64,000 bases of DNA from an uncultured Actinomycetota bacterium (GTDB lineage Bacteria > Actinomycetota > Actinomycetes > Mycobacteriales > CADCTP01): the NCBI GenBank assembly GCA_963728945.1, contig CAVSMA010000002.1:738723-802722 (forward strand), read 5' to 3'. The stretch's first letter is position 1; each line of letters starts with the position of its first letter. Made by a program: the position numbers and the translations under genes. The notes under the pieces were generated by a model that worked only from the letters and a program-made list of their open reading frames with translations, was not told where the DNA came from and made no database searches. Shown here piece after piece: positions 6,417 to 36,585 of the stretch.

Positions 6417-6659
6417 TCCGGCGACAGGTCTCGGTTCGGCAACGCCGGTCAGCGCCGGTCCTCCCTCGTTGCATGTCTGTCGGCGCTCTCAGTATCCTTG
6501 ACAGCGCGCTGTGGGTCTGCGTGCCTCGGTATGGAGCAGGCCACGCTCGTCAAGGATGTCATCTGGCACGTCAGCCGGCGTGCACGGTCTCGTCACCGGC
6601 GAACAACGGGCCCTCGCGTATCGACCTATACCTAGCCCGCGACCGGAGCGCCCCACCAC

Positions 6660-8144
6660 ATGACGTCCACCACCGAGACCCGTCCCGAGCAGACGGCGAC
6701 CTCACCCACGTCCACGACCCCGCAGGTCGCGGTCAACGACATCGGATCGGCGGAGGACTTCGCCGCCGCCGTCGACCAGACGATCAAATACTTCAACGAC
6801 GGCGACATCGTCGAGGGCACGATCGTCAAGGTCGACCGGGACGAGGTCCTGCTCGACATCGGCTACAAGACCGAGGGCGTCATCCCCTCGCGGGAACTGT
6901 CGATCAAGCACGACGTCGATCCCAACGAGGTCGTCAAGCTGGGCGACGAGGTCGAGGCCCTTGTTCTCCAGAAGGAGGACAAGGAGGGCCGGCTGATCCT
7001 GTCCAAGAAGCGCGCGCAGTACGAGCGGGCCTGGGGCACGATCGAGCAGAAGAAGGAGAACGACGAGGTCGTCGAGGGCACCGTCATCGAGGTCGTCAAG
7101 GGCGGCCTGATCCTCGACATCGGCCTGCGCGGCTTCCTGCCCGCCTCCCTCGTCGAGATGCGCCGGGTCCGCGACCTCCAGCCGTACGTCGGCCGGCAGC
7201 TCGAGGCGAAGATCATCGAGCTCGACAAGAACCGCAACAACGTGGTGCTGTCCCGGCGCGCCTGGCTGGAGCAGACCCAGTCCGAGGTCCGCACCGAGTT
7301 CCTCAACAAGCTGGCCAAGGGCCAGGTCCGGACCGGCGTGGTCTCCTCGATCGTCAACTTCGGCGCGTTCGTCGACCTCGGCGGCGTCGACGGCCTGGTG
7401 CACGTGTCCGAGCTGTCCTGGAAGCACATCGACCACCCGTCCGAGGTCGTCGAGGTCGGCCAGGAGGTCACGGTCGAGGTGCTCGACGTCGACCTGGAGC
7501 GCGAGCGGGTCTCGCTGTCGCTCAAGGCGACGCAGGAGGACCCGTGGCGGCAGTTCGCCCGGACCCACCAGATCGGCCAGGTCGTCCCGGGCCGGGTCAC
7601 CAAGCTGGTGCCGTTCGGCGCGTTCGTCCGCGTCGAGGAGGGCATCGAGGGCCTGGTGCACATCTCCGAGCTGGCCGAGCGGCACGTCGAGATCCCCGAG
7701 CAGGTCGTCCAGGTCGGCCAGGAGATCCTGGTCAAGGTCATCGACATCGACCTGGAGCGGCGGCGGATCAGCCTGTCGCTCAAGCAGGCCAACGAGGGCG
7801 CCGGCACCGGCGGCGAGCCGGGCGAGTTCGACCCCGCTCAGTACGGCATGGACGCCCAGTACGACGAGCAGGGCAACTACATCTACCCCGAGGGCTTCGA
7901 CCCGGAGTCGGGGGAGTGGCTGCCCGGCTACGAGACCCAGCGCGAGGAGTGGGAGCGGCAGTATGCCGAGGCCCAGGCCCGCTACGAGGCGCACGTCAAG
8001 CAGGTCCGGGAGGCTCAGGCGGCGGAGGCGGAGGCGACCGGCGAGACGTCCTACAGCACCGACTCGGCCGACTCCGGTGGCACGCTCGCCTCGGACGAGG
8101 CGCTCGCCGCGCTGCGCGAGAAGCTCGCCGGCGGTCGCGCCTAG
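6660..8144 (+). CDS. rpsA: 30S ribosomal protein S1
   Basis: It has four S1 domains (GDIVEGTIVKVDRDEVLLDIGYKTEGVIP, VEGTVIEVVKGGLILDIGLRGFLPAS, VRTGVVSSIVNFGAFVDLGGVDGLVHVSEL, VVPGRVTKLVPFGAFVRVEEGIEGLVHISEL) and an acidic C-terminal tail. Confidence 0.97.
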   Translation: MTSTTETRPEQTATSPTSTTPQVAVNDIGSAEDFAAAVDQTIKYFNDGDIVEGTIVKVDRDEVLLDIGYKTEGVIPSRELSIKHDVDPNEVVKLGDEVEALVLQKEDKEGRLILSKKRAQYERAWGTIEQKKENDEVVEGTVIEVVKGGLILDIGLRGFLPASLVEMRRVRDLQPYVGRQLEAKIIELDKNRNNVVLSRRAWLEQTQSEVRTEFLNKLAKGQVRTGVVSSIVNFGAFVDLGGVDGLVHVSELSWKHIDHPSEVVEVGQEVTVEVLDVDLERERVSLSLKATQEDPWRQFARTHQIGQVVPGRVTKLVPFGAFVRVEEGIEGLVHISELAERHVEIPEQVVQVGQEILVKVIDIDLERRRISLSLKQANEGAGTGGEPGEFDPAQYGMDAQYDEQGNYIYPEGFDPESGEWLPGYETQREEWERQYAEAQARYEAHVKQVREAQAAEAEATGETSYSTDSADSGGTLASDEALAALREKLAGGRA

Positions 8145-17418: not shown

Positions 17419-18951
17419 ATGCGGACGATTCTCGTCAACGGCGACGGGCTCGCACTCGACGACGTGGTGGACGTGGCCCGGCAGCGGGCCAGGGCCGAGC
17501 TCGGCCCGGACGTGCCCAGGCGGATGGCGGCCGCCCGCCGGGTCGTCACCGACGCGGTCGAGCGCGGCGCGGTCGTGTACGGGGTGAGCACCGGGTTCGG
17601 CGCGCTCGCCGACGTCTCGGTGGCCCGCGAGGACCTGGAGGCGATGCAGCTGGCGCTGGTCCGCTCGCACGCCGCCGGCACCGGCGAGCCGCTGCCCGCG
17701 GACGCGGTCCGGGCGCTGCTCCTGCTGCGGGCCCGCACGATCGCCGCCGGCGCGTCCGGCTGCCGCCCGGAGCTGCCGGAGCGGCTGCTCGAGCTGCTCG
17801 ACCGCGACCTGCTGCCGACCGTGCCGGCCAAGGGGTCGGTCGGCGCGTCCGGCGACCTGGCCCAGCTCGCCGCGGTCGCGCTGCCGCTGGTCGGCGAGGG
17901 CCTGCTGGACGGCCGGCCGGCCGCCGGGGTGCTCGCCGCCGAAGGACTCGCTCCGCTGGTGCTCGCCCCGAAGGAGGGGCTCACGCTCATCAACGGCACG
18001 GAGCCGATGCAGGCGCTGCTCGCGCTCGCGGTGGCCGACGCCGAGGGGCTGGCCCGGGCCGCCGACGTGGCGTGCGCGCTGTCGGTGGAGGCGCTGCTCG
18101 GCACCGACCGCGCGTACGACGACCGGGTGATCCGCATCCGGCCGCATCCAGGGCAGCTCGCCAGCGCCGACAACCTGCGCCGGCTGCTCGCGCACAGCCC
18201 GCTGCTGGCCAGCCACCGGCACTCCAACCACGCCGTCCAGGACCCGTATTCGCTGCGTTGTGCGCCACAGGTGCACGGCGCCTCCCGCGACGCCATCGCG
18301 TACTGCCGGCGGGTCGTGGAGATCGAGCTCGCGTCGGTCGTGGACAACCCCGTCGTCGTCGACGAGATCGACGGCGACGGGTACGAGGTGATGTCGACCG
18401 GCAACTTCCACGGTCAGCCGCTGGCGTTCGCCGGCGACATGCTGGCGATGGCGGCGGCGGAGCTGGGAAGCATCAGCGAGCGGCGGGTCTATCGGCTGCT
18501 CGACCCGGCGACCTCCCGCGGCCTGCCGCCGTTCCTCGCCCGCCGGGCCGGGACGAACTCCGGCTTCATGCTCGCCCAGTACACGGCCGCGTCGCTGGTG
18601 GCCGAGAACAAGGTGCTGGCCCATCCCGCCGGCGTGGACAGCATCCCGACCAGCGGCAACCAGGAAGACCACGTGTCGATGGGCTGGCACGCCGTCCGCA
18701 AAGCCGGTGAGGTGCTCGAGAATGTGTCGACCGTCCTCGCGGTCGAGCTGCTCTGCGCCGCCCAGGCCATCGACCTGCGGGCGGACACAGCGGTGCCGGG
18801 GCCGGCCGCGTCGGGCGTGCACGCGCTCATCCGCGCGCACGTGCCGGCGATGGACGTCGACCGGCAGGTCACCCCGCAGATCGAGGCCGTCCGCGCGATG
18901 CTGCCGGAGCTGGTCGCCGCGGCCGAGGAGGTCACCGGGCGGTTGGCCTGA
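17419..18951 (+). CDS. hutH: histidine ammonia-lyase
   Basis: The MIO-forming motif is GSVGASGDLAQLA. Also present are YGVSTGFGALA and QEDHVSMG. Confidence 0.95.
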   Translation: MRTILVNGDGLALDDVVDVARQRARAELGPDVPRRMAAARRVVTDAVERGAVVYGVSTGFGALADVSVAREDLEAMQLALVRSHAAGTGEPLPADAVRALLLLRARTIAAGASGCRPELPERLLELLDRDLLPTVPAKGSVGASGDLAQLAAVALPLVGEGLLDGRPAAGVLAAEGLAPLVLAPKEGLTLINGTEPMQALLALAVADAEGLARAADVACALSVEALLGTDRAYDDRVIRIRPHPGQLASADNLRRLLAHSPLLASHRHSNHAVQDPYSLRCAPQVHGASRDAIAYCRRVVEIELASVVDNPVVVDEIDGDGYEVMSTGNFHGQPLAFAGDMLAMAAAELGSISERRVYRLLDPATSRGLPPFLARRAGTNSGFMLAQYTAASLVAENKVLAHPAGVDSIPTSGNQEDHVSMGWHAVRKAGEVLENVSTVLAVELLCAAQAIDLRADTAVPGPAASGVHALIRAHVPAMDVDRQVTPQIEAVRAMLPELVAAAEEVTGRLA

Positions 18952-18975
18952 GCACGCCGGGAACCCGCGAAGCGA

Positions 18976-20499
18976 CTACCGGTAGCGGGACGCGGTGTCC
19001 CGGGCCGGGTGCGCCCGGCCGGCCGGGCCGGTCGCGAACGCCTCCAGCAGCCGCGTCGTCACCCCGGTCACCACCCGGCGTACGACCGGGGTCGGCGAGT
19101 CGAGCCCGGCGACCCAGTCGCTGGTGCCCGAGTCGAACACGGCCGCGCCGGACCGGGTGGTGTAGTACGCCGCCTCGGCCGCGTCCGCCCGCCCGTCGCA
19201 GACCAGCGGGGAGTGGGTGAGCACCTCGATCGGCCGCGGCGTGGGCGCACCAAGGTAGACCCGGTCATACTCGGAGCCGACCAGGCCGGGCAGCCGGCTG
19301 CCGGCGGACAGCCCGAGCCCGGCGAACAGCCAGCTGCCCGGGTCGACCACGACCATCGGCGCGCGGACCGGGCTGCAACCGTAGTCGGTGCCGGTCAGGC
19401 TGCTCTCGTTGTCGCTGGACGGCGGGTCCCGCCACTGGGTCGTCACCTGCGCCGGGTCGGTACGGCCGATCGGGTCGGTGTCGTCCTTGTAGTTGATCTC
19501 GAGCCGGTCCGGGCCGACCGCGGTGCCGCCGAACCGGATCTTCCGGTAGATCGCGTTCGCCCCGAGGAACGCGACGTTGGTGCCGGCGTCACGGGCGCGG
19601 GTGAGCGCCGCCCGCATGTCCGGCGACCAGTACTCGTCGTGTCCGAGCGAGATCACCGCACTCGCGCCGGCCAGCAGGCCGGGGTCACGCTGCAGGTCGA
19701 CGTCGGTGGCGTAGCCGAGCCGAAGCCCGAGCTTCTCGGCGAGCGCGACCGCCGGCAGCTCGGCGCCGAGGAAGTCGGCCGTCCCGGCGCCGTAGTCGTA
19801 CGGCCGGTCGAACGTGACCGCGCGGGCCCGGTCGGCGCGGGCGCCGTCCGGTCCGTGGTAGAGGCTGTAGCCGCCCCAGGCGTTGTACGCCTGCCAGGTC
19901 GTGTCGGCGTTGACCAGCACCACCGCGCCCCGGTTGGTCGCCGTCCGGACGGTGAGCGGGACGAACCGGCGCAGCGCTCCGCGGTCGGTGTCCAGCCGGA
20001 GCAGGTAGTCGCCGGCCGGCCAGCCGGTGGTCGGCACGGTCAGCGTCGGCCGCCACGGCGCGCTCGGCGTGTGCGTCGGGCCGGTGACCCGGGCCGCCGC
20101 CTGCAGCCGGGTCGGCACCGGCGCCGACTGCCAGACCAGCCGCGCCCTCCTCCCGCCGTACCAGCCCATCCGGTACGCGCGGACCCGGACGTGGTGGGCG
20201 GTCGTCGAGACGAACAGCCGCACCGGCTGGCCGGGCAGCACGCTGTCGTGATCGGCGTAGCCCTCGACGTCGTGCTGGCCGCCCACCTTGACCACCGACC
20301 AGTTCGGGTCGCCGGGCCTGGCCCGCTCCGTGGCGGCCGGGAACGCCGGTGCCGCGGTCGGTCGGGCCGCCGGGCGGGTGGTGGCGGATGCGGTCCGGGG
20401 CGGCGGAGTCGGGCGCCCGGACGTGCAGCCGGCCAGCGCCAGCGCGGCCAGCGCTCCGGCGAGCAGGGCGCCTCGTCCTGGACGGGACCGGACGGTCAT
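18976..20499 (-). CDS. lipoprotein of the N,N-dimethylformamidase beta-subunit-like (DUF6605) family
   Basis: The start is chosen at [25 protein letters not shown] (lipobox). [34 protein letters not shown] is typical of the family, from memory. Confidence 0.65.
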
Positions 20500-20578
20500 C
20501 GGCACAGTGTGGCGGACCACCGAACGGTCCGGCCCGGCGCGGGCCGCAGCGCCGGCCGGGAGGGATACGGTCGGGCTC

Positions 20579-22269
<1,691 letters not shown>

Positions 22270-22270
<1 letters not shown>

Positions 22271-23467
22271 TGCCGCCGGTCGGGGACCTGCTGGTCCGGC
22301 GGGCCGGCCGGATCGTCACCAACGACGGCCCGCCGGTGCCCGGGCCGGCCGCGGTGTCGGTCCGCAACGGGGTGGTCGCCTGGATCGGCCCGGACGAGCG
22401 GGTGCCGTGGACGATCACCGACGCGCCCGAGCTGGACGCGGACGGCGCCTGCGTGCTGCCCGGGTTCGTCGACCCGCACACGCACGCGTTGTGGGCCGGC
22501 TCGCGGCGGGAGGAGTACGCCGCCCGGCTGGCCGGCGAGTCGTACACCGGCGGCGGCATCGCGTCGACCGTCGCCGCCACCACCGCAGCGCCCGACGACG
22601 AGCTCCTCGACCTGGCCGCGCTCCGGCTCGGGCGGATGGCCGCGAACGGCACGACGACCGTCGAGGTGAAGACCGGCTACGGGCTCGACCCGGCGGCGGA
22701 GCTGCGGCTGGTCGGGCTGGTACGCCGGCTCGCCGAGCGGGTGCCGCTCCGGGTCGAGCCGACCCTGCTGGCGCACGTGGTCCCGGCCGGGGTCGACCGC
22801 GGCCGCGCACGTCGCGGCGCTGGCCGGGCTCATGCCGGTGGCCGGCGACGCCGGCGCCCGATGGCTGGACGTGTTCTGCGACCGGGGCGCGTTCACGGTC
22901 GACGAGGCGCGGACGCTGCTGCGGGCCGGCGCCGCGGCCGGGCTCGGCGGCCGGCTGCACGCCGAGCAGCTCAGCCACACCGGCGCCGCCGCGCTGGCCG
23001 CCGAGGCCGGCTGCGCCTCCGCAGACCACCTGGAGCACGTCGACGAGGCCGGGGCGAAGGCGATGGCGGCGACCGGCGTGGTCGGCGTGCTGCTGCCGAC
23101 CGCGACACTGAGCACGCACGGGGGCTGGGACAACGCGCGGGTGCTGCGCGAGGCCGGGGTGACGCTCGCCCTCGGCACCGACTGCAACCCGGGCACGTCC
23201 TGGTGCGAGTCCGTCCCGTACGCGCTGCAGCTGGCGGCGCCGCTGCTCGGGCTGACCGTGCCGGAGGCGATCCGCGCCGCGACGGCCGGCGGGGGAGCGG
23301 CGCTGCGCCGGCCCGAGCTCGGCGTGCTGCGGTTGACCCACCCGGGCGACCTGCTGGTGCTGGAGGCGGAGCACGAGGCGGACCTGCTCGCCCACCTCGG
23401 CGCGCCCGCCGTCCGCACCACGATCGTCGGCGGAGTGCCGGTCTCCGGCGCCCGCACCATCCACTGA
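22270..23467 (+). pseudogene. hutI: imidazolonepropionase interrupted by an apparent +1 frameshift near 22798
   Basis: The N-terminal half (LPGFVDPHTHALWAGSR...LLAHVVPAGVD) is in the frame of 22270. The C-terminal half (AAAHVAALAGLMPVAGDAGARWLDVFCDRGAF...LHAEQL...ADHLEH...LGTDCNPGTS) is in the next frame and ends at 23467. Removing c at 22798 joins them seamlessly. Confidence 0.85.
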
Positions 23468-23702
23468 CGCACCGCCCGCCGCCGGCCGCACCACTCGCCC
23501 GCCCGCGACGGCTCGACCGTCCTCTGGGCTGGTTGCGGGCGTCCGCCCCACCGTCTTGGTCGCCCAGTGCCGCCGGCGGCTCGACCCTCCTGCCGGACCG
23601 CGGCGCCGGCCGTTGCCCCGGGCGCCGGCTCCGGCGGGCGACTCGGGTGCCGGGCGCCGGCCGGGCGACGGGTCGGGAGCGGGCGCCTTAGGCTGGGTGC
23701 TC

Positions 23703-24806
23703 ATGCGGAGGCTGCCGGTGAGCGGAGTCGGCGACCGGGTGCGGCTGGCCGGGTTCTTCGCCCGGCTGGCGGTCAAGGAGCACCTGGCGCCACGGCTGCA
23801 CGTGCGACCCCTGGTGGCCGAGCTGTTCCTCACCGACAACTGCAACCTCAACTGCATCAGCTGCGCCTGCTGGCGCACCGTCACCCGGCGCGAGCTGGAC
23901 GGCGACGAGTGGCGCGGGGTGATCGACCAGATCGCGGAGCTCGGCATCCTGAAGGCCAACTTCACCGGCGGCGAGCCGTTGCTGCGCCGCGACGCCCCGG
24001 AGCTCATGGCGTACGCGCGGGACGCGGGAATTCGGTCGCTGCACGTGAACACCAACGCGATCCTGCTCGACGACCGCCGACTCGGCGCCGTGCTCGACGC
24101 CGGCGTGCGCTCGTTCAACGTGTCCGTCGACGGTCCGGACGCCGAGCAGCACGACCGGATCCGCGGTAAGTCCGGGGCATTCGACACGACCCTCGACGCC
24201 CTGCAGCGGCTGCTCGCCGGCCGCGACGAGCTCGACATGCGGGTACGGATGAACTACACGGTCATGCGCTCGACCGTGGCCGCGCTGCCGGAGATCATGC
24301 GGCTGGCGCAGCGACTGCGGGTGCAGCTCTACCTGAACCTGGCCACCGACCACACGTTCCTGTTCCGGGACGGTCAGGTCTCGATCGAGGCGCGGGTCGA
24401 CCAGGCGCAGGTCGACGCGGCGCTGACCGAGGTCGAACAGGTGCTGCGGGCCGACCGCCGGTTCCTGCCGCGCTACTCGGAGCTGGCGTATCTGCGCGGC
24501 CACTTCGCGGACCTGCTGCAGAAGCCGCTGCCGTGCGCCGAGTCGCAGCTGAAGCTGATGGTGCATTCGACCGGCGAGGTCGGCGGCTGCTGGGGACACG
24601 ACGCGACGGCGAACGTGCGCACCACGCCGCTGCGGGAGATCGTCGCCGGTGCCGCGTACCGGGACGAGCACGCGCGGCTCTTCCGGAAGGACTGCGTGGG
24701 CTGCGGCAGCAACTACGCGCTCAACCTGGCCTGGCGACCGCGGACGTACGCGGCCGACGTGCTGTGGCGGGCGGGCCGGCGATCGCTGGCTCCGGTCGCA
24801 GCGTGA
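23703..24806 (+). CDS. radical SAM enzyme with SPASM/twitch-like C-terminal cysteines
   Basis: The Cx3Cx2C motif is in LTDNCNLNCISCAC. FTGGEPLL is present. The C-terminal cysteines are PLPCAESQ...GEVGGCWGH and KDCVGCGSNY. Confidence 0.85.
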   Translation: MRRLPVSGVGDRVRLAGFFARLAVKEHLAPRLHVRPLVAELFLTDNCNLNCISCACWRTVTRRELDGDEWRGVIDQIAELGILKANFTGGEPLLRRDAPELMAYARDAGIRSLHVNTNAILLDDRRLGAVLDAGVRSFNVSVDGPDAEQHDRIRGKSGAFDTTLDALQRLLAGRDELDMRVRMNYTVMRSTVAALPEIMRLAQRLRVQLYLNLATDHTFLFRDGQVSIEARVDQAQVDAALTEVEQVLRADRRFLPRYSELAYLRGHFADLLQKPLPCAESQLKLMVHSTGEVGGCWGHDATANVRTTPLREIVAGAAYRDEHARLFRKDCVGCGSNYALNLAWRPRTYAADVLWRAGRRSLAPVAA

Positions 24807-25576
24807 GACCGAGCGCGCCCCTGTACGACGCGCTGGCCGCGGACTACGACGCCCACTTCGCCGCCCCGCACCGGCGCGCGTACGACGAGCTGGCCTGGGA
24901 GGTCTGCGCGGAGGTGATCGGGGCGGCTCCAGCGCACGTCGTGGACGTCGGGTGCGGGGTCGGACGGTGGGCGGCGCGACTGGTCTCGGCCGGGCACCGG
25001 GTGACCGGGATCGAGCCGGCTCCGGCGATGGCGGCCGCGGCCCGGCGCCGGCTCGCCGGCAGCGACGTCACGCTGGTCGAGTGCCGCCTGGAGGACGCCG
25101 CGCTGCGGTCCGGGTCGGCCGACGTGGTGCTCGCGATGGGGTCGCTGCAGTACACGCTCGACCCGGCCGCGGCGCTCGCCCGGTGCGCGGCCTGGCTGCG
25201 GCCCGGGGGCGCGATGTGCGTTCTGGTCGACTCGCGCCAGGCCCTGGTGCTGGAACTGCTCGCCGCCGGCCGGACCGATGAGGCACTGGAGTGCCTGGCG
25301 ACCCGGCGCGGGGTGTGGCAGGTCGGACCGCACGCCGCCGACCTGCACCTGCTCGACGCGGCCGAGCTGGCCGCGGCGGTGCGTGCCGCCGGCCTGGCGG
25401 TGGAGCGGCTGGCCGGCCTGCTCGTCGGCGCCTCGGCGCACGGCCGGGCCGGCCTGCTCACCCGCCTCGAGCGCGACTACCCGGCCCAGCTCGCCGCCGA
25501 ACGCCGCCTCGCCGCCGAACCCGCGCTGGCCGACCTCGGCAAGCAACTCCTCATCACCGCCCGCAAGCCCGCCTGA
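24803..25576 (+). CDS. class I SAM-dependent methyltransferase
   Basis: The GTG start overlaps the radical SAM stop (GTGA at 24803-24806). VVDVGCGVGRWAARL and LRPGGAMCVLV are present. Confidence 0.8.
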   Translation: MRPSAPLYDALAADYDAHFAAPHRRAYDELAWEVCAEVIGAAPAHVVDVGCGVGRWAARLVSAGHRVTGIEPAPAMAAAARRRLAGSDVTLVECRLEDAALRSGSADVVLAMGSLQYTLDPAAALARCAAWLRPGGAMCVLVDSRQALVLELLAAGRTDEALECLATRRGVWQVGPHAADLHLLDAAELAAAVRAAGLAVERLAGLLVGASAHGRAGLLTRLERDYPAQLAAERRLAAEPALADLGKQLLITARKPA

Positions 25577-25677: not shown

Positions 25678-27744
25678 TCAGCGCCGGGCGGCGGTCAGCG
25701 CCGCGAGGACTGCCATCGTGACGCGTTCGGCCTGGAGAGGTGACAGTTCCGAGGACATCGGCAGCGCGAGCGCCTCCCGGCCGAGCGCGTCGGAGACCGG
25801 CAGCGGCCCGGCCCGCTCCGCGTAGGGACCCCAGTCGTGCCAGTGCAGCGGGGGCGCGTAGTAGGGCTTGGTGCGGACGCCGAGCCGGTCGAGCTCGGCC
25901 GCCAGCCGATGCCGGTCGACCCCGCCGAATCGCGCCACCCAGTGGACGAACGCGTGCGCGTCGCCGTCGGCCACCTGCTGCGGCCGCACCCCCTCCACGG
26001 TCGCGAGCTCGGCGTAACGGGCGGCGACCGCCCGCCGCCGGTCGAGCAGCAGGTCGAGGTCCGCGAGCAGATCGAGCGCGGCCACCGCCGCGGTCTCGAC
26101 CATCGGCACCGACCGCAGCCAGTCGACCGGTGCCCGCAGCCGCTCGACCGCGTCGGCCGGCAGTGCCAGCGCGCCGCCGCTCCCGCCGGCGGAGACCACC
26201 TTCGCGAAGCTCAGCGAGTAGGCATGGGCGGCCGCCTGGGTGGCGACCGGGCGGCCCTGGTGCCGCGCCCCGACCGCGGCGGCGGAGTCGGCGACCAGCG
26301 GCACCCCGGCGTCCGCGCAGACCTTCGTCAGCGCCGTGTAGTCCGCCGGCGCGCCGAGTGCGTCGACCGCGACGACGACCGCCGCGTGGCCGCCGGCGAG
26401 CGCGGCCGCGAGCGAGTCGGGGTCCATCGTCCAGGTGTCCGGGCGCACGTCGCAGAACCGCAGCGTGTAGCCGAGCTGGGCCAGGATCTCGCCGGTGGCC
26501 GCGAAGGTGAACGAGGGCAGCACGCCGACGTCGCCCGGGCGGACCGGCCCCGCGACAGCCTGCACGGCCAGCCGCACCGCGGCCGAGCCGGACGCGGTCA
26601 GCAGCAGCGCCGAGTCTTCCGGCAGCGTCAGCTCGTCCCGCAGCCGGGTGGCCAGCTCGGTCGCCCAGCGCCCGCCCTTGACCCTGCCGGTGTCCAGGCA
26701 GGCCTGCATCCTGACGGCCACCAGGTCGGGCCGGCGCGGCCGCGGCGGCAGCACCACCGGCAGCGGCGGCGAGAACGCGGGCAACCGGTCGGCGGCGAGC
26801 CCGGTCACGAACGACCGCAGCGTCCGGTCGAGCCGAGCCGGCCCGTCAGCGGCACCGAGCCGCCGCCGGAACTCCTCCGTGTCGACCCGGCCGGACACGT
26901 CCAGCCGTGGCGGCGGGTCGACCGTCACCGGCACGTCGACGCCGAGCGTGTCCAGCACCAGCGCGGCGAGACAGGTCAGCGGCAGCGCGGCCAGCCCGGC
27001 GTCGAGCGTGCCCGGTTCGGCGTCGAGCACGACGGCGGCGAGGTCGTCGACCGGCAGGAAAGTCCGCACGGTGTCGGTGACGGCCAGCGGCAGCCCGGCC
27101 AGCGCCCGCCGGCTCAGCTGGGCGACCACGCGGTCCTGACCCGGACCGAACACGTTGGCCGCGCGCAGCACGGTCAGCCGGTCGGGCTCGACCACCGAGC
27201 GGACCAGCAGCTCCTGCGCCCGTTTGGACAGCGCGTAGGCCCAGCGGCCGCCCGGGTCGGCGGCTACCAGCTCCCGGCACAGCGCGGCCACCTGCCACGG
27301 CGGAGAGGGCCGGCGGGCGACCTCGAGCAGCGCCGCGCACCAGTCGGCGACGGTGGCGTCGTCGACCGGCAGCTCGCCGCCGGCCGGGCCGTGCACCTCG
27401 GCCGAGGAGACCAGCACAACCTGCCGGTCCGCCAGCGCTGGCAGCAGTCGTGCGGTCGTGACCGCGTTGTCGAGCACCAGCCGCCACGGATCGCCGGCGT
27501 GCCGGTCGCTGGCGCCGGCCGCGAGCACGACCGGCCCGGGTGGCATCTCGATCGGGTCGACCAGCAGGTCGACCACCCGCTGTTCGACCGACGCCGGCAG
27601 CCGCGACGGCGGCTGACGGATGCGGTCGAGACTGACCACCGGCCGTCCCGACCCGGTCACCCGCCGAGCGATCCCGGAGCCCACGAATCCGGCGCCGCCC
27701 ACGACAGTCACAGCCCCACGCTGCACCCGGCACCTCCCCGTCAT
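25678..27744 (-). CDS. fusion protein: N-terminal NAD-dependent epimerase/dehydratase (extended SDR) + C-terminal DegT/DnrJ/EryC1/StrS-type PLP aminotransferase
   Basis: SDR part: VTVVGGAGFVGSGIA, VSSAEVHG, and the YxxxK motif in YALSKRAQE. Aminotransferase part: LLTASGSAAVRLAV, VPLVADSAAAVGA, and the lysine motif SLSFAKVVSAGGSGGA. An alternative GTG start at 27726 is preceded by ggggagg. Confidence 0.8.
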   Translation of the reverse strand: MTGRCRVQRGAVTVVGGAGFVGSGIARRVTGSGRPVVSLDRIRQPPSRLPASVEQRVVDLLVDPIEMPPGPVVLAAGASDRHAGDPWRLVLDNAVTTARLLPALADRQVVLVSSAEVHGPAGGELPVDDATVADWCAALLEVARRPSPPWQVAALCRELVAADPGGRWAYALSKRAQELLVRSVVEPDRLTVLRAANVFGPGQDRVVAQLSRRALAGLPLAVTDTVRTFLPVDDLAAVVLDAEPGTLDAGLAALPLTCLAALVLDTLGVDVPVTVDPPPRLDVSGRVDTEEFRRRLGAADGPARLDRTLRSFVTGLAADRLPAFSPPLPVVLPPRPRRPDLVAVRMQACLDTGRVKGGRWATELATRLRDELTLPEDSALLLTASGSAAVRLAVQAVAGPVRPGDVGVLPSFTFAATGEILAQLGYTLRFCDVRPDTWTMDPDSLAAALAGGHAAVVVAVDALGAPADYTALTKVCADAGVPLVADSAAAVGARHQGRPVATQAAAHAYSLSFAKVVSAGGSGGALALPADAVERLRAPVDWLRSVPMVETAAVAALDLLADLDLLLDRRRAVAARYAELATVEGVRPQQVADGDAHAFVHWVARFGGVDRHRLAAELDRLGVRTKPYYAPPLHWHDWGPYAERAGPLPVSDALGREALALPMSSELSPLQAERVTMAVLAALTAARR

Positions 27745-27855: not shown

Positions 27856-28308
27856 GTGCCGCGCGTGCTGCTCGTCTCGTCCAGCGGCGGCGTACTACCC
27901 GACCTGCTTGCACTCCGACCGTGGTGGGGCCGGTACGACGTCAGCTGGGTCGCGGTGAACGCTCCGGACACACGCGAACTGCTGGCGGGCGAGCGGGTTC
28001 GCTGGACACCGGAGCTGAGCCCCGGCCGGCCGGACCGGCTGCTGGCCGCGGTCCCGGCCGCGCGGGCGGCCCTGCGCGCCTCCCGGGTCGATCTCGTTGT
28101 CTCCGCGGGCAGCGGCGTCGCCGTGCCCTGGTTCCTCGCGGCGCGTACCACGGGCGCGCGGGCGGTGTGGGTGGAGACGTTCAACATCGTCGACCGTGCG
28201 GGGCTGGCCGCCCGGCTGTGCGCCCGACTGGCCAGCCACGTCGTCGTGCAGCGGCCGCACCTGCTCGGCCGGCACCGGCGGGCGGTTGCCGTCGGGGAGC
28301 TGTGGTGA
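27856..28308 (+). CDS. Alg14-like glycosyltransferase accessory/membrane-association subunit (PssD/Cps14F-like)
   Basis: VLLVSSSGGVL, DLVVSAGSGVAVPWFLAAR and VWVETFNIVDRAGLAARL...VVVQRPHL match the Alg14 layout, from memory. Confidence 0.7.
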   Translation: MPRVLLVSSSGGVLPDLLALRPWWGRYDVSWVAVNAPDTRELLAGERVRWTPELSPGRPDRLLAAVPAARAALRASRVDLVVSAGSGVAVPWFLAARTTGARAVWVETFNIVDRAGLAARLCARLASHVVVQRPHLLGRHRRAVAVGELW

Positions 28309-29540
28309 GTTCGGTCTTCGTCACGGTCGGGATGGGGCCCTGGCCGTTCGACCGGCTGGTCCGGGCGGTCTCGCCGCTCTGTTCCGAGCACGACGTATTC
28401 GTCCAGACCGGCACGTCGTCGGTGGTGCCGCCGTGCCCGTACGAGCGATTCCTGGGGCCGGCCGAGACACTGCGCCGGATCACGGACGCCGACGTCGTCG
28501 TCACCCACGGCGGCAACACCGTGCGGCTCGCGCAGCGCGCCGGGAAGGTGCCGATCGCGGTCGCTCGGGAGGCGGCGCGCGGGGAGATGCGCAACGACCA
28601 CCAGGTCGCTTACCTGGCGACGGAGCTGGCCGGCGGCCGGATCCGCGTGCTCACCGGGGACCGGCCGGCGCTGGCCACCGCGGTCGGGGACCATCCGGCC
28701 GTACAGTCCCGGATGCTCGCCGCCGCCCCGCCGCTGCCGCCGCCGGCGGACCCGGTCCGGGTGGTCGAAGCGCTGGACGCCGCGCTGTCGCCGGCCGGTG
28801 GACCGTTCGATCGGCACCCGCTGGCCCGCTACCGGTGGGCCTGGGGCCAGCTCGCCGCCCGCACCGGCCGGCACCTCGACCTGGGCGTCGGTGACGGGAC
28901 GTTCACGGCCGCGCTGCACCGGGAGACCAAGCTGGACGTGGTGGCCGTCGATGCCCACCCGAGCTATCTCAACGAGCTGCGCGCAGCCGAACCTCACCTC
29001 CCGCTGGGCCGGGTCGGGGCCGCGCTGCCGTTCGCGAGCGGCGCCTTCGACTCGGTCAGCGCGCTGGACGTGCTCGAACACGTCGCCGACGAGGCCGGGA
29101 CGCTGGCCGAGTTGCACCGCGTGCTGCGCCCGGGCGGCCTGCTGGTGCTCACCGTCCCCGCGCGGCATGCGTTCTCGGTGCTCGATCCCGACAACGCCAA
29201 ACTCACGCTGCCGCGCCTGCACCGGGCGGTCTACCAGCGCCGGTTCGGCCGGGCCGAGTACGAGCGGCGGTTCGTCGACGCGGCGAACGGGCTGCGCGGC
29301 GACATGGCCTGGGATCGGGCGGAGCACACGAACTACCGGGCGACCGAGCTGCTCGCCGCGCTGTCCGCGGTCGGGTTCGAGCCGACCGTGCGGGACGGCG
29401 CCGGGCTCTACTGGCGGCTCCTGCAGGTGCCGGCGCTGCTGCTGCCCCGCCGCCTCGCCCGGCTGCTGGACGCCCCGCAGCGGCTGGACGCCCGGCTGTT
29501 CCACCGGGCCAACCTCTTCCTCACCGCGACCCGCCGCTGA
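28305..29540 (+). CDS. fusion: Alg13-like glycosyltransferase catalytic half (Glyco_tran_28_C; PssE/Cps14G-like) + class I SAM methyltransferase
   Basis: There is a GTGA overlap with the Alg14-like gene. GT half: VFVTVGMGPWPFDRLV, VVVTHGGNTV, GKVPIAVARE...NDHQ. MT half: HLDLGVGDGTF, FDSVSALDVLEHV, LRPGGLLVLTVP. Confidence 0.7.
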   Translation: MSSVFVTVGMGPWPFDRLVRAVSPLCSEHDVFVQTGTSSVVPPCPYERFLGPAETLRRITDADVVVTHGGNTVRLAQRAGKVPIAVAREAARGEMRNDHQVAYLATELAGGRIRVLTGDRPALATAVGDHPAVQSRMLAAAPPLPPPADPVRVVEALDAALSPAGGPFDRHPLARYRWAWGQLAARTGRHLDLGVGDGTFTAALHRETKLDVVAVDAHPSYLNELRAAEPHLPLGRVGAALPFASGAFDSVSALDVLEHVADEAGTLAELHRVLRPGGLLVLTVPARHAFSVLDPDNAKLTLPRLHRAVYQRRFGRAEYERRFVDAANGLRGDMAWDRAEHTNYRATELLAALSAVGFEPTVRDGAGLYWRLLQVPALLLPRRLARLLDAPQRLDARLFHRANLFLTATRR

Positions 29541-32879: not shown

Positions 32880-33842
32880 GTGGTGGTGGGGACGCGGCTC
32901 GATGGTGGGCGGGTCGGGGCGGCGCGTGCGGTGATCGACCCGGTGTTCCTGGACACGCCGATGTATCCGTGTGATCCGCTGGGGCGTGCGCTCGGGTGCA
33001 CGGTGAGCGTCAAGCTGGAGACGGCGAACCCGGTCCGCAGCTTCAAGGGCAGGGGTACGGAGCTCGTCGCGAGCATGCTGGCCGAGCAGGGCCGGCCGGC
33101 CGTGGTGTGCGCCAGCGCCGGCAACCTCGGTCAGGCGCTCGCCTGGTCGGCTGGTCGCCGCGGCATCGACGTCACCGTGGTGGCCTCGCGGTGGGCGCCG
33201 GTGGCCAAGCTCGATCGGATCCGCGCCCTGGGCGCGGCGCTGGAGCTCGTGGACGGCGACTTCGAGGCGGCCCGCGAGCGGGCGGCGAGCATCGCGGAGC
33301 GGGACGGCGTCCGGCTGGTGGAGGACAGCCGCGACCTCGAGACCTGCGAGGGGGCCGCGACGATCGGCCTCGAGCTGGCAGCCGGGGCAGCGCAGTTCGA
33401 CGCGGTCCTGATCGCGCTGGGTGGCGGCGCGATGGCCACCGGCGTGGGCCACGTACTGAAGACGCACGCACCGGCGGCCGAGGTGATCTGCGTGCAGCCC
33501 TCCGGCGCACCGGCCATGACCCTGTCCTGGCGGGCGCGCCGGGTGGTCACCACCGACTCGGCCGACACCATCGCCGACGGCGTCGCCGGTCGATACCCCA
33601 TCCCGGCGGTCCTCGACGACCTCCTCGTCGTCGCCGACGACGCCGTCCTGGTCCAGGAAGCGTCGATCGTCGCGGGCCTCCGGCTGTTGCTCGAGCACGC
33701 CGGCCTGGTCGTCGAACCGTCCGCGGCCCTCGGCGTCGCCGCCGTCCTGGAGGACCGCGAGCGCTTCGCGGGCCGGCACGTCGTCGTCATCATCTGCGGC
33801 AGCAACGTCGACCTCGACGCCTATCACCGCTGGATCTCCTGA
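32880..33842 (+). CDS. PLP-dependent threonine/serine dehydratase-family enzyme
   Basis: The lysine motif is LETANPVRSFKGRGT. Also present are ASAGNLGQALA and ALGGGAMATGVG. The GTG start at 32880 is uncertain. Confidence 0.8.
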   Translation: MVVGTRLDGGRVGAARAVIDPVFLDTPMYPCDPLGRALGCTVSVKLETANPVRSFKGRGTELVASMLAEQGRPAVVCASAGNLGQALAWSAGRRGIDVTVVASRWAPVAKLDRIRALGAALELVDGDFEAARERAASIAERDGVRLVEDSRDLETCEGAATIGLELAAGAAQFDAVLIALGGGAMATGVGHVLKTHAPAAEVICVQPSGAPAMTLSWRARRVVTTDSADTIADGVAGRYPIPAVLDDLLVVADDAVLVQEASIVAGLRLLLEHAGLVVEPSAALGVAAVLEDRERFAGRHVVVIICGSNVDLDAYHRWIS

Positions 33843-34816
33843 GCGCCGGCGGCGGTCGCGCGCCGGTAGCGGTCGGCCAGGCGGCGTACGTGCTCGACCA
33901 GCTCGGGAGGCCCGGCGACGTGGAAGTCCAGGTCGAGCATGCCCACGTAGGCGGCAACCGTGGCGAGGCTGTCGGCGCCGGTGACCAGGATCGAGTTGTG
34001 CTCGTCGACGGTCTCGACGACCCCGACCGCCGGGTTGATCCGGGCGAGGACCGCCTCGGCCGGCGCGGCCACGGCGATGCGGGCGCGCACGTTCCACCCG
34101 GTCGAGGCGACCTCGCGCAGCACCAGGTCGGTGTAGTCGTCCGGCGGCGCCGACGGGGTGAAGCGCGGGCCGCCCGGCGTCCGCAGCGTGATCCAGTCGA
34201 CGCGCAGCACCTGCCAGGACCCGCGGACCGGCTCCCTGGCCACCAGATACCACCGGCGCTCCCAGCTGACCAGCCGGTACGGCTCGACCTGTCGCGGCAG
34301 CCCGGCGGCCGGCGAGCCCGGGTCGTGGTAGTCGAAGCGCACCGAGACCCGGTCCCGGACGGCCGCGGCGAGCGCGCTCAGCAGCGCCGGGTCGACCTCC
34401 GGGTCAGGGGCGTCGGTGCGGGTGTTCTCCGGCCCGGACGAGACCGTCGCGGAGATCGCCTCCACCGAGCGGCGCAGCCGGTGCGGCAGCACTCGTTCCA
34501 GCTTCGCCAGCGCCCGCGCGCTGCTCTCGCGGATGCCGCTGATCCCGGCACCCGACCGCAGCCCGACGGCGATCGCGACCGCCTCCTCGTCGTCGAGCAG
34601 CAGCGGCGGCAGCGCCGCTCCGACCCCGAGCCGGTAGTGCCCGGCCGGTCCCTGCACGGCGTCGACGGGGTATCCCAGCTCGCGCAGCCGGCTGATGTCG
34701 TTGCGGACCGTGCGGGCGCTCACTCCGAGCCGACCGGCCAGCTCGGAGCCGGTCCAGTCCGGTCGGGACTGCAGCAGGGACAGCAGGCTGAGCAGCCGTA
34801 CGGCGGGATCGCGCAT
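33824..34816 (-). CDS. HTH + WYL-domain transcriptional regulator (YafY family)
   Basis: The HTH is LAGRLGVSARTVRNDISRLRELGYPV. The WYL-type motif is EPYRLVSWERRWYLVA. Confidence 0.85.
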   Translation of the reverse strand: MRDPAVRLLSLLSLLQSRPDWTGSELAGRLGVSARTVRNDISRLRELGYPVDAVQGPAGHYRLGVGAALPPLLLDDEEAVAIAVGLRSGAGISGIRESSARALAKLERVLPHRLRRSVEAISATVSSGPENTRTDAPDPEVDPALLSALAAAVRDRVSVRFDYHDPGSPAAGLPRQVEPYRLVSWERRWYLVAREPVRGSWQVLRVDWITLRTPGGPRFTPSAPPDDYTDLVLREVASTGWNVRARIAVAAPAEAVLARINPAVGVVETVDEHNSILVTGADSLATVAAYVGMLDLDFHVAGPPELVEHVRRLADRYRRATAAGAQEIQR

Positions 34817-34878
34817 CTGCCAAGAATGCCCGACAACTAGGAAGGGTTGCTGCCTAGTAAGACCGTAGCGTCGTCGTC

Positions 34879-36036
34879 ATGACCGAAACACTGCGCGACA
34901 CCGACGTCCACCGGTTCGTCATCGACATCCCGCAGGCCGATCTGGACGACCTTGCCGACCGGCTGGCCAGGACCCGGCTGCCCCGGCCGGCCCCCGGCGA
35001 CGACTGGGACTACGGCACGCCGAACTCGTACCTGGCCGAGATGGTGGAGCGGTGGCGCACCACCTTCGACTGGCGCGCCCAGGAGGCGCGGATGAACGCG
35101 TTCCCGCACTACCGCACCGAGATCGACGGGCAGACCGTGCACTTCGTCCACGTGCCGTCCGCCGAGCCGGGCGCGACGCCGCTGCTGCTGGCGCACAGCT
35201 ACCCGGGCTCGTTCGTCGACTTCCTCGACATGATCGGGCCGCTGACCGACCCGGTCGCGCACGGCGGCCGGTCCGAGGAGGCGTTCTCGGTCGTGGTCCC
35301 GTCGCCGCCCGGGTTCGCCTTCTCCACCCCGGTGGTCGACCGCGGCTGGACCGTCGCCCGGGTCGCCCGCACGTACGACACGCTCATGCGGCGGCTCGGG
35401 TACGAGTCGTACGGGGTGCACGGCAGCGACAACGGCGCGCTGGTGGCGCGCGAGCTCGGCCTGCTCGACCCGCCTGGCTTCCTCGGCCTGCACGTGCTGC
35501 AGCTGTTCTCGTTCCCCTCCGGCGACCCGGCCGAGTTCGAGCAGCTCGGTCCGGCCGACTACGCGGCGCTGGAGCACCTGACGTGGTTCCAGTCCGTCGG
35601 CGGCTACAACGGGATGAACGCGTCCCGGCCGCAGACCGTCGCGGTCGGGCTGTCCGACTCGCCGGTCGGCCAGCTCGCGTACAGCGAGCTGTTCAACTCG
35701 TTCGGTAACGGCACCAGCCTGCTCACGCCCGACCAGATCCTCACCCAGGTCTCGCTCTCCTGGCTGACCAACACGTCCGCGACGGCGGCGCGCTACTACT
35801 ACGAGGAGGCCCGGGCCGGGACGACGCCGGCCGTGAACGCCGCCCGCACCGGGGTCGCGGTCTTCGCGGACGACTTCCAGACGATCCGGGCGTTCGCCGA
35901 GCGGGACAACTCGAACATCGCGCACTGGAGCCGGTTCGACACCGGCGGCCACTACGCCGCCATGGAACAGCCCGCCGCCGTCGTCGGCGACCTGCGCACG
36001 TTCTTCGCCACCAGCCGGAAGTCCCCTGTCGCGTAG
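34879..36036 (+). CDS. epoxide hydrolase (EHN N-terminal domain + alpha/beta hydrolase)
   Basis: FVIDIPQADLDDLADRLARTRLP, FDWRAQEARMNAFPHYRTEIDGQTVHFVHV and GWPGSF-like HSYPGSFVDF are present. Confidence 0.85.
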   Translation: MTETLRDTDVHRFVIDIPQADLDDLADRLARTRLPRPAPGDDWDYGTPNSYLAEMVERWRTTFDWRAQEARMNAFPHYRTEIDGQTVHFVHVPSAEPGATPLLLAHSYPGSFVDFLDMIGPLTDPVAHGGRSEEAFSVVVPSPPGFAFSTPVVDRGWTVARVARTYDTLMRRLGYESYGVHGSDNGALVARELGLLDPPGFLGLHVLQLFSFPSGDPAEFEQLGPADYAALEHLTWFQSVGGYNGMNASRPQTVAVGLSDSPVGQLAYSELFNSFGNGTSLLTPDQILTQVSLSWLTNTSATAARYYYEEARAGTTPAVNAARTGVAVFADDFQTIRAFAERDNSNIAHWSRFDTGGHYAAMEQPAAVVGDLRTFFATSRKSPVA

Positions 36037-36045
36037 GTTCGGACG

Positions 36046-36585
36046 GTGGTGCCGAGGGTGATCGTGGTCAACGGCGGGTCGAGCTCCGGCAAGACCAGCA
36101 TCGTGCGCCAGCTACAGGGCATGCTCGCCGAGCCGTGGCTGGCCGCGAGCATCGACGACTTCGTCGACTCGCTGCCGCCCGCGCTGCAGGACTCGGCGGA
36201 GGGCTTCGGTATCGCCGCCGGCGGCGCCGTCGCGGTCGGGCAGGTGTTCCGAAGGCTGGAGGCGGCGTGGATGGCCGGAATCGCGGCCACCGTCCGGGCC
36301 GGCGCGCCGGTCGTCGTCGACGACGTCTTCCTCGGCGCCGCGGAGTCCCAGCAACGCTGGCGGGCGGCGCTGGCCGGGCTGCCGGTGGCCTGGGTCGGCG
36401 TGCACTGCGATCCCGCGGTCGCCGGACGGCGGGAGGCCGCCCGCGCGGACCGCGAGCCCGGGATGGCGGCAAGGCAGGCGACCGCGGTGCACCGGGACGT
36501 CGGATACGACGTGGAGGTCGACACCACCGGCACCGGCGCAGTGGACTGTGCCCGCACCGTCGTCACCCGGCTGGGGCTCACGTAA
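36046..36585 (+). CDS. chloramphenicol phosphotransferase-like (CPT family) P-loop kinase
   Basis: The P-loop is VIVVNGGSSSGKTSI. Size and layout are typical of the CPT family. Confidence 0.8.
   Translation: MVPRVIVVNGGSSSGKTSIVRQLQGMLAEPWLAASIDDFVDSLPPALQDSAEGFGIAAGGAVAVGQVFRRLEAAWMAGIAATVRAGAPVVVDDVFLGAAESQQRWRAALAGLPVAWVGVHCDPAVAGRREAARADREPGMAARQATAVHRDVGYDVEVDTTGTGAVDCARTVVTRLGLT

Follow-up and report, generated by a model that had tools for sequence, protein, structure and literature searches.

Can two enzymes that normally act as separate and consecutive steps in amino-sugar biosynthesis be encoded as one protein, and what would such a protein do? The question is raised by a gene in a 64,000-nucleotide stretch of contig CAVSMA010000002.1 (referred to as the window, meaning this whole stretch), from an uncultured Actinomycetota bacterium, in which an N-terminal half of the extended short-chain dehydrogenase/reductase (SDR) type is joined to a C-terminal aminotransferase of the DegT type. 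The original prediction, made from the nucleotide sequence, read this open reading frame (ORF) as a single polypeptide, took it to imply the channelling of a keto-sugar, and did not regard it as a standard architecture. At a G+C content of approximately 75%, the window can be expected to contain long spurious ORFs, which made a check of the fusion ORF necessary. The fusion is a genuine single protein, and it is judged probable, with appreciable doubt, that it is a bifunctional amino-sugar synthase, in which a 4-keto UDP-sugar made by the SDR half is aminated by the DegT half.

A single protein with two domains

Both halves of the 688-aa translation are recognized by Pfam. The C-terminal half matches DegT_DnrJ_EryC1 (PF01041) with an E-value of 1.8e-44 (152.9 bits against a cut-off of 19.8), and the N-terminal half matches Epimerase (PF01370) with an E-value of 1.2e-17 (64.6 bits against a cut-off of 20.9), the latter match being split into two stretches. 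The reading of the ORF as one polypeptide with an Epimerase/SDR half and a DegT half is thus borne out, and the four motifs quoted for it are all present in the translation, that is, GGAGFVGS (aa 16-23), SSAEVHG (113-119), YALSK (170-174), and SLSFAKVVSAGG (510-521).

The single ORF might, in principle, be a sequencing or assembly artefact that has united two neighbouring genes, but the chance of this is practically negligible. The G+C content of the third codon position (GC3) lies between 0.82 and 1.00 in all of the 40-codon blocks of the ORF, and codon-position GC is uniform over the junction, which shows no break or change of frame; the frameshift that the original prediction had allowed for is not seen. 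The same architecture recurs in more than 150 protein clusters and in 64 species genomes, and is carried by the complete chromosomes CP043661, CP120740, CP109549, and AP031496. The junction is itself conserved, with the motif LPVVxPPRPxxP kept across the family and V330, V331, P333, P334, and P339 invariant, and it contains no long flexible linker. The AlphaFold2 model of the whole chain has a pLDDT of 92.8 and a pTM of 0.90, which suggests that the two halves are packed in a defined manner. No evidence in support of an artefact was found, and this explanation is effectively refuted.

The annotated ATG is likely to be wrong, and the true start is probably the GTG at 27726 (codon 7), given that it is preceded by GGGGAGG and yields a protein of 682 aa, as long as its closest homologues, which start with MQRGAV or VQRSAV.

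Among 5.8 billion clustered proteins, 157 matched at E<1e-5, of which 120 were listed; nearly all of those listed are 650-730 aa long, contain both Pfam domains, and share 46-96% identity with the window protein, and they include proteins of sequenced isolates of Kribbella, Micromonospora, and Actinoplanes. A scan of one genome per species, using patterns specific to the window fusion family, found 72 loci, 64 of them with both halves, and these counts describe this family rather than all possible SDR-DegT fusions. Most of the fusion loci belong to the Actinomycetota, with metagenome-assembled genomes (MAGs) of the Mycobacteriales nearest to the window, and others from the Propionibacteriales, Micromonosporaceae, Streptosporangiaceae, Acidimicrobiales, Solirubrobacterales, and Gaiellales. 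The few hosts beyond this phylum are a Chloroflexota MAG, Sphingobium, Caulobacteraceae MAGs, and the gammaproteobacterium Halioxenophilus aromaticivorans, which is represented by a complete genome.

The architecture is, then, non-standard, as first supposed, but it is not unique either: more than 150 clusters and no fewer than 64 species-level genomes carry it, under generic annotations. Database names include, for example, "DegT/DnrJ/EryC1/StrS family aminotransferase" and [quoted passage not shown]. The look-up returned no record with the exact sequence of the window protein, and the literature search, whose coverage leaves out much of the subscription literature, found no paper that characterizes an SDR-DegT fusion.

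The SDR half

Residue conservation was assessed in a 35-member alignment of the fusion family and in a separate six-sequence alignment. Among the 35 members, G16, G17, G19, F20, G22, D40, and S113 are invariant, which covers the GxxGxxG dinucleotide-binding motif and, with D40, the acidic residue at the end of beta-2, and position 114, which aligns with the catalytic Ser of MoeE5 and of the UDP-GlcNAc C4-epimerase 6wjb, is always Ser or Thr. E116, Y170, and K174 are each conserved in at least 90% of these members, and are invariant in the six-sequence alignment. The window protein keeps all of the SDR catalytic residues, with His replacing the Tyr of V-Y-G, followed by a nine-residue deletion. 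The loss of the catalytic Tyr and Lys, which had been named as a possible objection, is not observed, given that both hold in the alignment, together with the lysine that binds pyridoxal 5'-phosphate (PLP) in the other half.

E116 occupies what is presumably the position of the catalytic Glu of RmlB, GMD, UDP-xylose synthase (UXS), and ArnA, and the family motif RW.YA.SK is taken here to resemble the ArnA-type segment. The motif of the catalytic Glu is T-D-E in RmlB and T-x-E in GMD. In the comparison with the RmlB type, E116 is nearly invariant, but the position of the Asp is occupied by Ala, Val, or Ile, and the TIGR01181 model scores 16.6 bits against a cut-off of 365.

The SDR half is interrupted by a family-specific insertion of approximately 35 aa, absent from solved SDRs, for which two helices are predicted (129-142 and 149-161). 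Within the insertion, W135 is invariant, and C147 (which is Ser in the window protein), P148, P149, and C156 are nearly so. The spacing between S114 and Y170 is 56 residues, compared with roughly 25 in a contiguous SDR core, and the alignments to solved SDRs all break at aa ~130-168, that is, at the insertion.

When the SDR half was searched against 1.84 billion representative proteins, 290 matches were recovered at E<1e-3 and 34 at E<1e-30. The close relatives are almost all fusions of 670-790 aa, or fragments, with the ordinary SDRs starting at approximately E 1e-8. Four candidates for a standalone relative (P0121, P0122, P0126, and P0137) appear to be fragments or truncated calls.

The best sequence match of the SDR half in the PDB has an E-value of about 1e-5. 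Its predicted model (pLDDT 92.9) shows the bilobal fold typical of nucleotide-sugar SDRs, and reaches a Foldseek E-value of 1e-16 and TM values of 0.63-0.69 to UXS, MoeE5, GalE, RmlB, and TunA. In the Foldseek order, the oxidoreductase/decarboxylase Pcryo_0617 comes first, followed by MoeE5, UXS, the GalE-type epimerases, RmlB, and TunA. The profile scores are highest for MoeE5 (93 bits), the UDP-GlcNAc C4-epimerase (89), and UXS (89), with RmlB at ~46-50 and the GalE of Escherichia coli at ~42, although the profile included P0185, a canonical fusion discussed below, and may be biased toward UXS. The top relatives have in common a UDP-sugar substrate and a first oxidation at C4 by bound NAD+. 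A dehydratase or decarboxylase type is favoured over an epimerase, by hints rather than proof, because of the position of E116, the RW.YA.SK motif, and the best match of P0185, which is to the model for UDP-4-keto-pentose/UDP-xylose synthase. The PRK11908 model matches P0185 and only one other member, with no match to the window protein.

The aminotransferase half

The DegT half has the fold-type I architecture of aspartate aminotransferases, with TMt values of 0.82-0.89 to GDP-perosamine synthase, WbpE, TlmJ, DesI, ArnB, and WecE, and DesI as its best sequence match. Across the 35 members, K515, D486 (the Asp that binds the pyridine nitrogen), S385, G386, P410, T413, and the PMSSE segment (662-666) are invariant. 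K515 sits in the motif SFAK and aligns with the Schiff-base lysine of DesI, being Lys rather than the His of the ColD/E1 dehydratases. The Foldseek search with the full model returned matches to the DegT half only, and no solved chain among the matches listed spans both halves.

Two of the structural neighbours, Pcryo_0617 (the top neighbour of the SDR half) and Pcryo_0616 (among the top neighbours of the DegT half), which are represented by PDB entries 8vr2 and 8e75, are consecutively numbered genes of Psychrobacter cryohalolentis. This pairing may be a coincidence, as the scores do not discriminate, and the literature search, with the coverage stated above, found nothing specific on these two genes.

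Comparison with known systems

Separate SDR and DegT enzymes form a number of known pairs, including the C-terminal domain of ArnA with ArnB, RmlB with DesI or WecE, GMD with perosamine synthase, PglF with PglE, and Pcryo_0617 with Pcryo_0616. The window fusion shares with these pairs the same two folds, the cofactors, and the logic of an NAD-dependent C4 oxidation that gives a keto-sugar for PLP transamination, and its SDR half has the S/T-x-E motif, the Tyr, and the Lys. It differs from them in that both activities stand on one chain with a conserved, linker-less junction, in the helical insertion before YxxxK of an SDR that curated models score at no more than 20 bits, and in a DegT half that lacks the His/Gln of the D-x-A-H/Q motif and reaches no equivalog cut-off.

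A further comparison is with P0185, a canonical Epimerase::DegT fusion of 699 aa, which has the same domain order and is collinear with the window protein through both halves at 28% identity (E 8e-38). Both proteins have RW.YALSK (RWSYALSK in P0185), the S/T-x-E motif, and a similar junction. Unlike the window protein, P0185 has a contiguous SDR, matched by Epimerase at 167 bits in one stretch, with STSEVYG, no insertion, and DDAH in its DegT half. The alignment of the two contains one gap, exactly at the insertion site.

ArnA, in which a formyltransferase is fused to a UDP-glucuronic acid oxidative decarboxylase, is likewise a bifunctional enzyme of an amino-sugar pathway with an extended SDR, but the partner of this SDR is a formyltransferase and not an aminotransferase. 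The SDR of ArnA has a T-S-E motif and a segment like RW.Y..SK, and it frees a 4-keto sugar for its DegT partner, ArnB. The ArnA model gives no match to the window protein, and scores P0185 at 78 bits against a cut-off of 777.

Fusions of MviM, a Gfo/Idh/MocA dehydrogenase, to WecE, a DegT enzyme, have been described in Karenia brevis and in bacteria (PMC2064935). These also place a sugar dehydrogenase upstream of a DegT aminotransferase, with the same logic of oxidation followed by transamination. Their dehydrogenase has the Gfo/Idh/MocA fold, as opposed to the SDR fold, and they therefore represent an independent fusion event. What is already known, then, is the pairing of an oxidase or dehydratase with a DegT enzyme, which is textbook chemistry, the MviM-WecE fusion, and the database entries under generic names. 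What sets the window fusion apart is that both activities are covalently joined, that its SDR half carries an insertion and stands isolated in sequence, that its DegT motif is altered, and that it belongs to a conserved gene cassette without a described product.

The six-gene cassette and other genomic settings

The cassette consists of the fusion gene and five partners (Table 1), which encode a radical S-adenosylmethionine (SAM) enzyme, two class I SAM methyltransferases (MT_A and MT_B), and the PssD-like and PssE-like halves of a split glycosyltransferase. A census by tblastn of the five partners against all loci found all five at 42 of the 48 full-length loci that have at least 6 kb on both flanks. 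In the window, the genes for the radical SAM enzyme and MT_A converge with the fusion gene, and those for PssD and PssE::MT_B, in this order, diverge from it. Seven gene orders occur among the loci, one of them a co-directional operon, and the blocks [PssD-PssE-MT_B] and [radical SAM-MT_A] are intact in every case. PssE and MT_B are fused in the window and at most of the loci, and are encoded by two genes in Micromonospora (L003, 14050-15398), which is a second fusion/fission polymorphism of the same cassette.

Table 1. Coordinates of the fusion gene, its parts, and the partner genes of the cassette in the window.
Feature	Coordinates	Strand	Remarks
Fusion gene SDR::DegT	25678..27744	-	single ORF, 688 aa from ATG at 27744
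N-terminal extended SDR half	26785..27744	-	aa 1-~320; assigned by Pfam, residues, and fold
NAD motif GGAGFVG	27679-27699	-	aa 16-22
Catalytic-position Y170	27235-27237	-	
K174	27223-27225	-	
Family-specific insertion	27247..27366	-	aa ~127-166, between the SSxEV[YH]G strand and YxxxK
Inter-domain junction	26710..26784	-	aa ~321-345, LPVVLPPRPRRPD..., conserved
C-terminal DegT/DnrJ/EryC1/StrS aminotransferase half	25678..26709	-	aa ~346-688 and stop codon
PLP lysine K515	26200-26202	-	also in the DegT half: D486, SG 385-386, PMSSE 662-666
Radical SAM enzyme	23556..24806	+	cassette partner; probable start ATG 23703 (367 aa)
Class I SAM methyltransferase MT_A	24803..25576	+	cassette partner, 257 aa
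PssD/Cps14F/Alg14-like glycosyltransferase half	27856..28308	+	150 aa, divergent from the fusion gene
PssE/Cps14G/Alg13-like half fused to class I methyltransferase MT_B	28305..29540	+	411 aa

The radical SAM enzyme has the CxxxCxxC motif with an adjacent fourth Cys, and four further C-terminal Cys residues, each conserved in 98% of 58 homologues, a pattern that fits a single auxiliary iron-sulfur cluster of the twitch-like kind. Its best solved relative is the cytosylglucuronate decarboxylase BlsE (1.2e-14, 57.6 bits), with PqqE at 54.3 bits and DesII distant. It has no B12 domain, unlike GenD1 of the gentamicin pathway, which is a cobalamin-dependent radical SAM methylase. The two methyltransferases are generic, with DesVI, TylM1, and CalS10 at only 22-33 bits, below generic methyltransferases. 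All of the cassette proteins look soluble, and none of them reaches the cut-off of a curated equivalog model.

No further conserved gene, or small ORF of at least 35 aa, was found across 75 loci. Given this, and the variation of the surroundings from lineage to lineage, the cassette is a self-contained island. The next-best conserved cluster was an antisense ORF within the radical SAM gene (24473-24712, minus strand), "conserved" in 17 loci, which is most likely the shadow of a conserved sense frame in high-GC DNA and no gene. The literature search on the cassette signature, with the same coverage as above, found no describing paper.

The partners are wholly absent from four of the well-flanked full-length loci. 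In the complete genome of Halioxenophilus aromaticivorans (L042, cassette-free), the gene directly upstream of the fusion encodes a phosphoglycosyl transferase of the Bac_transf family (7266-7991). The same arrangement is found in a cassette-free Gaiellales MAG (L048, with a downstream flank of less than 6 kb), where a Bac_transf phosphoglycosyl transferase is encoded directly upstream and the fusion gene overlaps it. In a cassette-free Caulobacteraceae MAG, the fusion lies beside a Wzy_C protein. All of the cassette-free members examined have the insertion and the catalytic residues. The phosphoglycosyl transferase of the Gaiellales MAG (6332-7954) has a C-terminal sulfotransferase-like region, and the pair in Halioxenophilus stands among unrelated genes (phytase, PhoX, tannase, OmpA), where it looks like a two-gene island.

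Proposed function and alternative readings

As a bifunctional amino-sugar synthase, the fusion would act in two steps. The SDR half would bind NAD+, oxidize the C-4 of a common UDP-linked sugar, and free a 4-keto sugar, following 4,6-dehydration or else the oxidative decarboxylation of a uronic acid. The DegT domain, using PLP or pyridoxamine 5'-phosphate and an amino-acid donor, would then turn the ketone into an amine, to give a UDP-4-amino sugar, with the covalent link holding the two steps adjacent and stoichiometric. In the cassette, this product would presumably be processed by the two methyltransferases and the twitch-type radical SAM enzyme, and the split PssD/PssE-type glycosyltransferase would transfer the modified sugar to an acceptor, which is probably polyprenyl-linked. 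The fusion itself, the retention of its catalytic residues, the expected fold of each half, and the conservation of both the cassette and the link to phosphoglycosyl transferases are established, whereas the choice of sugar substrate, the carbon at which it is attacked, the sequence in which the cassette enzymes work, and channelling of the kind originally proposed are inferred.

The cassette-free loci bear directly on this reading. The position of a phosphoglycosyl transferase ahead of the fusion in Halioxenophilus and the Gaiellales MAG points to a nucleotide-sugar substrate and to halves that act in sequence, and these two-gene modules make most sense if the fusion, by itself, turns a common UDP-sugar into the UDP-amino sugar on which the transferase draws.

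A different order of events is unlikely, but deserves to be weighed. Here, the split glycosyltransferase would first place an ordinary sugar on a small-molecule or lipid acceptor, and the SDR half would be a true dehydrogenase acting on a hydroxyl of the glycoside, with DegT transamination, N-methylation, and a radical SAM step to follow, as in the conversion of gentamicin A2 to X2 (GenD2, GenS2, GenN, GenD1) or in blasticidin-type nucleoside routes (BlsE, BlsH). The activities of the cassette match those of the gentamicin set (oxidoreductase, transaminase, N-methyltransferase, and radical SAM enzyme; PMC4340712), a comparison of activities and not of homology. The gentamicin enzymes are, by contrast, separate proteins that act on a pseudotrisaccharide. 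Such tailoring after glycosylation would also be consistent with BlsE as the best solved relative of the radical SAM enzyme, with a single auxiliary cluster, as found in small-molecule radical SAM enzymes, and with soluble cassette proteins that include no lipid-carrier machinery. BlsE is, however, barely ahead of PqqE, and the similarity covers the radical SAM core only. Furthermore, the PssD and PssE types are known, by their NCBIfam names, as polyprenyl-PP-sugar glycosyltransferases, the nearest SDR relatives are all enzymes of nucleoside diphosphate (NDP)-sugars, and the fusion, where it occurs outside the cassette, immediately follows phosphoglycosyl transferases whose substrates are UDP-sugars, which favours an NDP-sugar as the substrate of the fusion too.

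The resemblance of the radical SAM enzyme to peptide-modifying SPASM/twitch enzymes (the PqqE, MftC, and StsB models) suggests another comparison, in which the cassette would act on a ribosomal peptide or some other non-sugar carbonyl, with the radical SAM enzyme as decarboxylase, the fusion as transaminase, and N-methylation as the last step. Analogous chemistry is known from the daptides (PMC10028931), and MT_A weakly matches the methyltransferase of the daptides (38.6 bits, with a cut-off of 175). Daptide pathways involve a class III aminotransferase (PF00202), an RRE protein, a precursor peptide, and transporters (PMC10028931), all of which are absent from the cassette, where the small-ORF survey found no candidate precursor. 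Both halves of the fusion are closest to nucleotide-sugar enzymes, and the glycosyltransferase and the linkage to phosphoglycosyl transferases also point to sugars. With the wrong enzyme classes, and neither a precursor nor an RRE protein, this analogy was rejected as very improbable.

A number of findings weigh against the bifunctional amino-sugar synthase itself. Fold and profile comparisons do not separate epimerases, a decarboxylase, and a 5,6-dehydratase as candidates for the subclass of the SDR half. The D-x-A-H/Q motif of the DegT half is D-S-A-A in the window protein, with Ala or Pro at the His/Gln position (DSAAA), where DesI has DAAH and P0185 has DDAH, and the NCBIfam equivalogs remain far from their cut-offs (DesI 109 bits against 650, PseC 99 against 423, and ArnB 65 against 631). 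The cassette lacks genes for a nucleotidyltransferase, a flippase, or a polymerase, and both the substrate and the acceptor are therefore guesses. The NCBIfam models reach no equivalog cut-off on the SDR half either, with a best score of ~20 bits, and the insertion interrupts the SDR core. Some lineages, moreover, have altered or lost this half. The homologues P0015, P0018, and P0019, which have 73-75% identity, have lost the Tyr, the Lys, or the EVYG motif with the cassette kept; Pfam no longer detects an SDR in the N-terminal half of P0196 and P0260; and two cassettes, at loci L069 and L070, have a DegT-only protein. The retention of the cassette after these losses indicates that SDR catalysis is dispensable in some lineages.

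These same losses, together with the strong divergence of the SDR half (including its weak PDB match) and the large insertion in its catalytic core, would be expected if this half were mainly non-catalytic, serving for the binding of a dinucleotide or nucleotide-sugar, or as an oligomerization scaffold, with the keto-sugar provided by another enzyme and the DegT half alone catalytic. The cassette is still 74-85% conserved alongside P0015, P0018, and P0019. On the other hand, the NAD motif, D40, S/T114, E116, Y170, and K174 are retained by the window protein and by at least 90% of the members, extending to those at 34-45% identity from other phyla, and this retention is hard to explain without SDR catalysis. 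The two-gene modules of phosphoglycosyl transferase and fusion also hold no other oxidizing enzyme. A mainly non-catalytic SDR half is therefore considered quite improbable for the family, although the domain may be on its way to becoming a pseudoenzyme in the lineages where it has lost catalytic residues or is no longer detected by Pfam.

Beyond the bifunctional synthase, a wider proposal is offered only tentatively, and is more doubtful than not. The six-gene island would be an undescribed, horizontally mobile pathway, mainly of the Actinomycetota, which makes a new methylated and radical SAM-modified amino sugar from a common UDP-sugar and attaches it to a lipid-linked acceptor of the envelope, or to a soluble acceptor. 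In this proposal, the helical insertion, with its Trp and Cys residues, would be a new element that gates the keto-sugar or channels it to the transaminase.

Significance of the fusion

With the production and the amination of a keto-sugar united in one natural protein, the fusion could reveal whether labile keto-sugar nucleotides, which are intermediates at metabolic branch points, are channelled, and may be of use in synthesis, as a compact one-protein catalyst for amino-sugar nucleotides. The inserted, fusion-bound, and partly decaying SDR half offers a view of the evolution of a domain after fusion. The cassette, having no described product, marks an undescribed glycoconjugate or metabolite of soil actinobacteria, and its hosts include culturable strains of Micromonospora, Kribbella, Actinoplanes, and Actinoallomurus. 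Both domains come from well-understood families, and basic concepts are left unchanged; the importance of the system would rise if the product of the cassette is a new sugar of the envelope or of a metabolite, or if the insertion mediates channelling.

Lineage-specific features and surroundings

The lineages with an altered SDR half show a number of further features. P0019 has a repetitive expansion, rich in Gly, Pro, and Ala, within the insertion loop, and an example of the P0015/P0018/P0019 type is found at locus L006 (8001-10037). The DegT-only protein of L070 (7344-9092) has an N-terminal extension of ~220 aa that is not recognizably an SDR. At L069 (2262-9059), a separate SDR ORF lies ~1 kb upstream of the operon, but it is generic and GalE-like, outside the window subfamily, and was rejected as a standalone relative of the SDR half. 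This locus is labelled Enterobacterales and has a GC content of 65%, and may therefore be mis-binned.

The variable surroundings of the cassette include, in the window, histidine-utilization (hut) genes, an ECF sigma factor, and other unrelated genes. The hut genes (17419-22270 and ~22267-23472) adjoin the cassette, and encode an aromatic amino acid lyase/HAL, a urocanase, and probably an amidohydrolase. The same neighbourhood is found in the closest relative (L001), and not in Kribbella or Micromonospora, which suggests that the cassette was inserted beside the hut genes in this lineage. A few kilobases downstream of the cassette, at 33824-36585, the window encodes a WYL/HTH regulator, an epoxide hydrolase, and a chloramphenicol-phosphotransferase-like protein, which are apparently unrelated to it.

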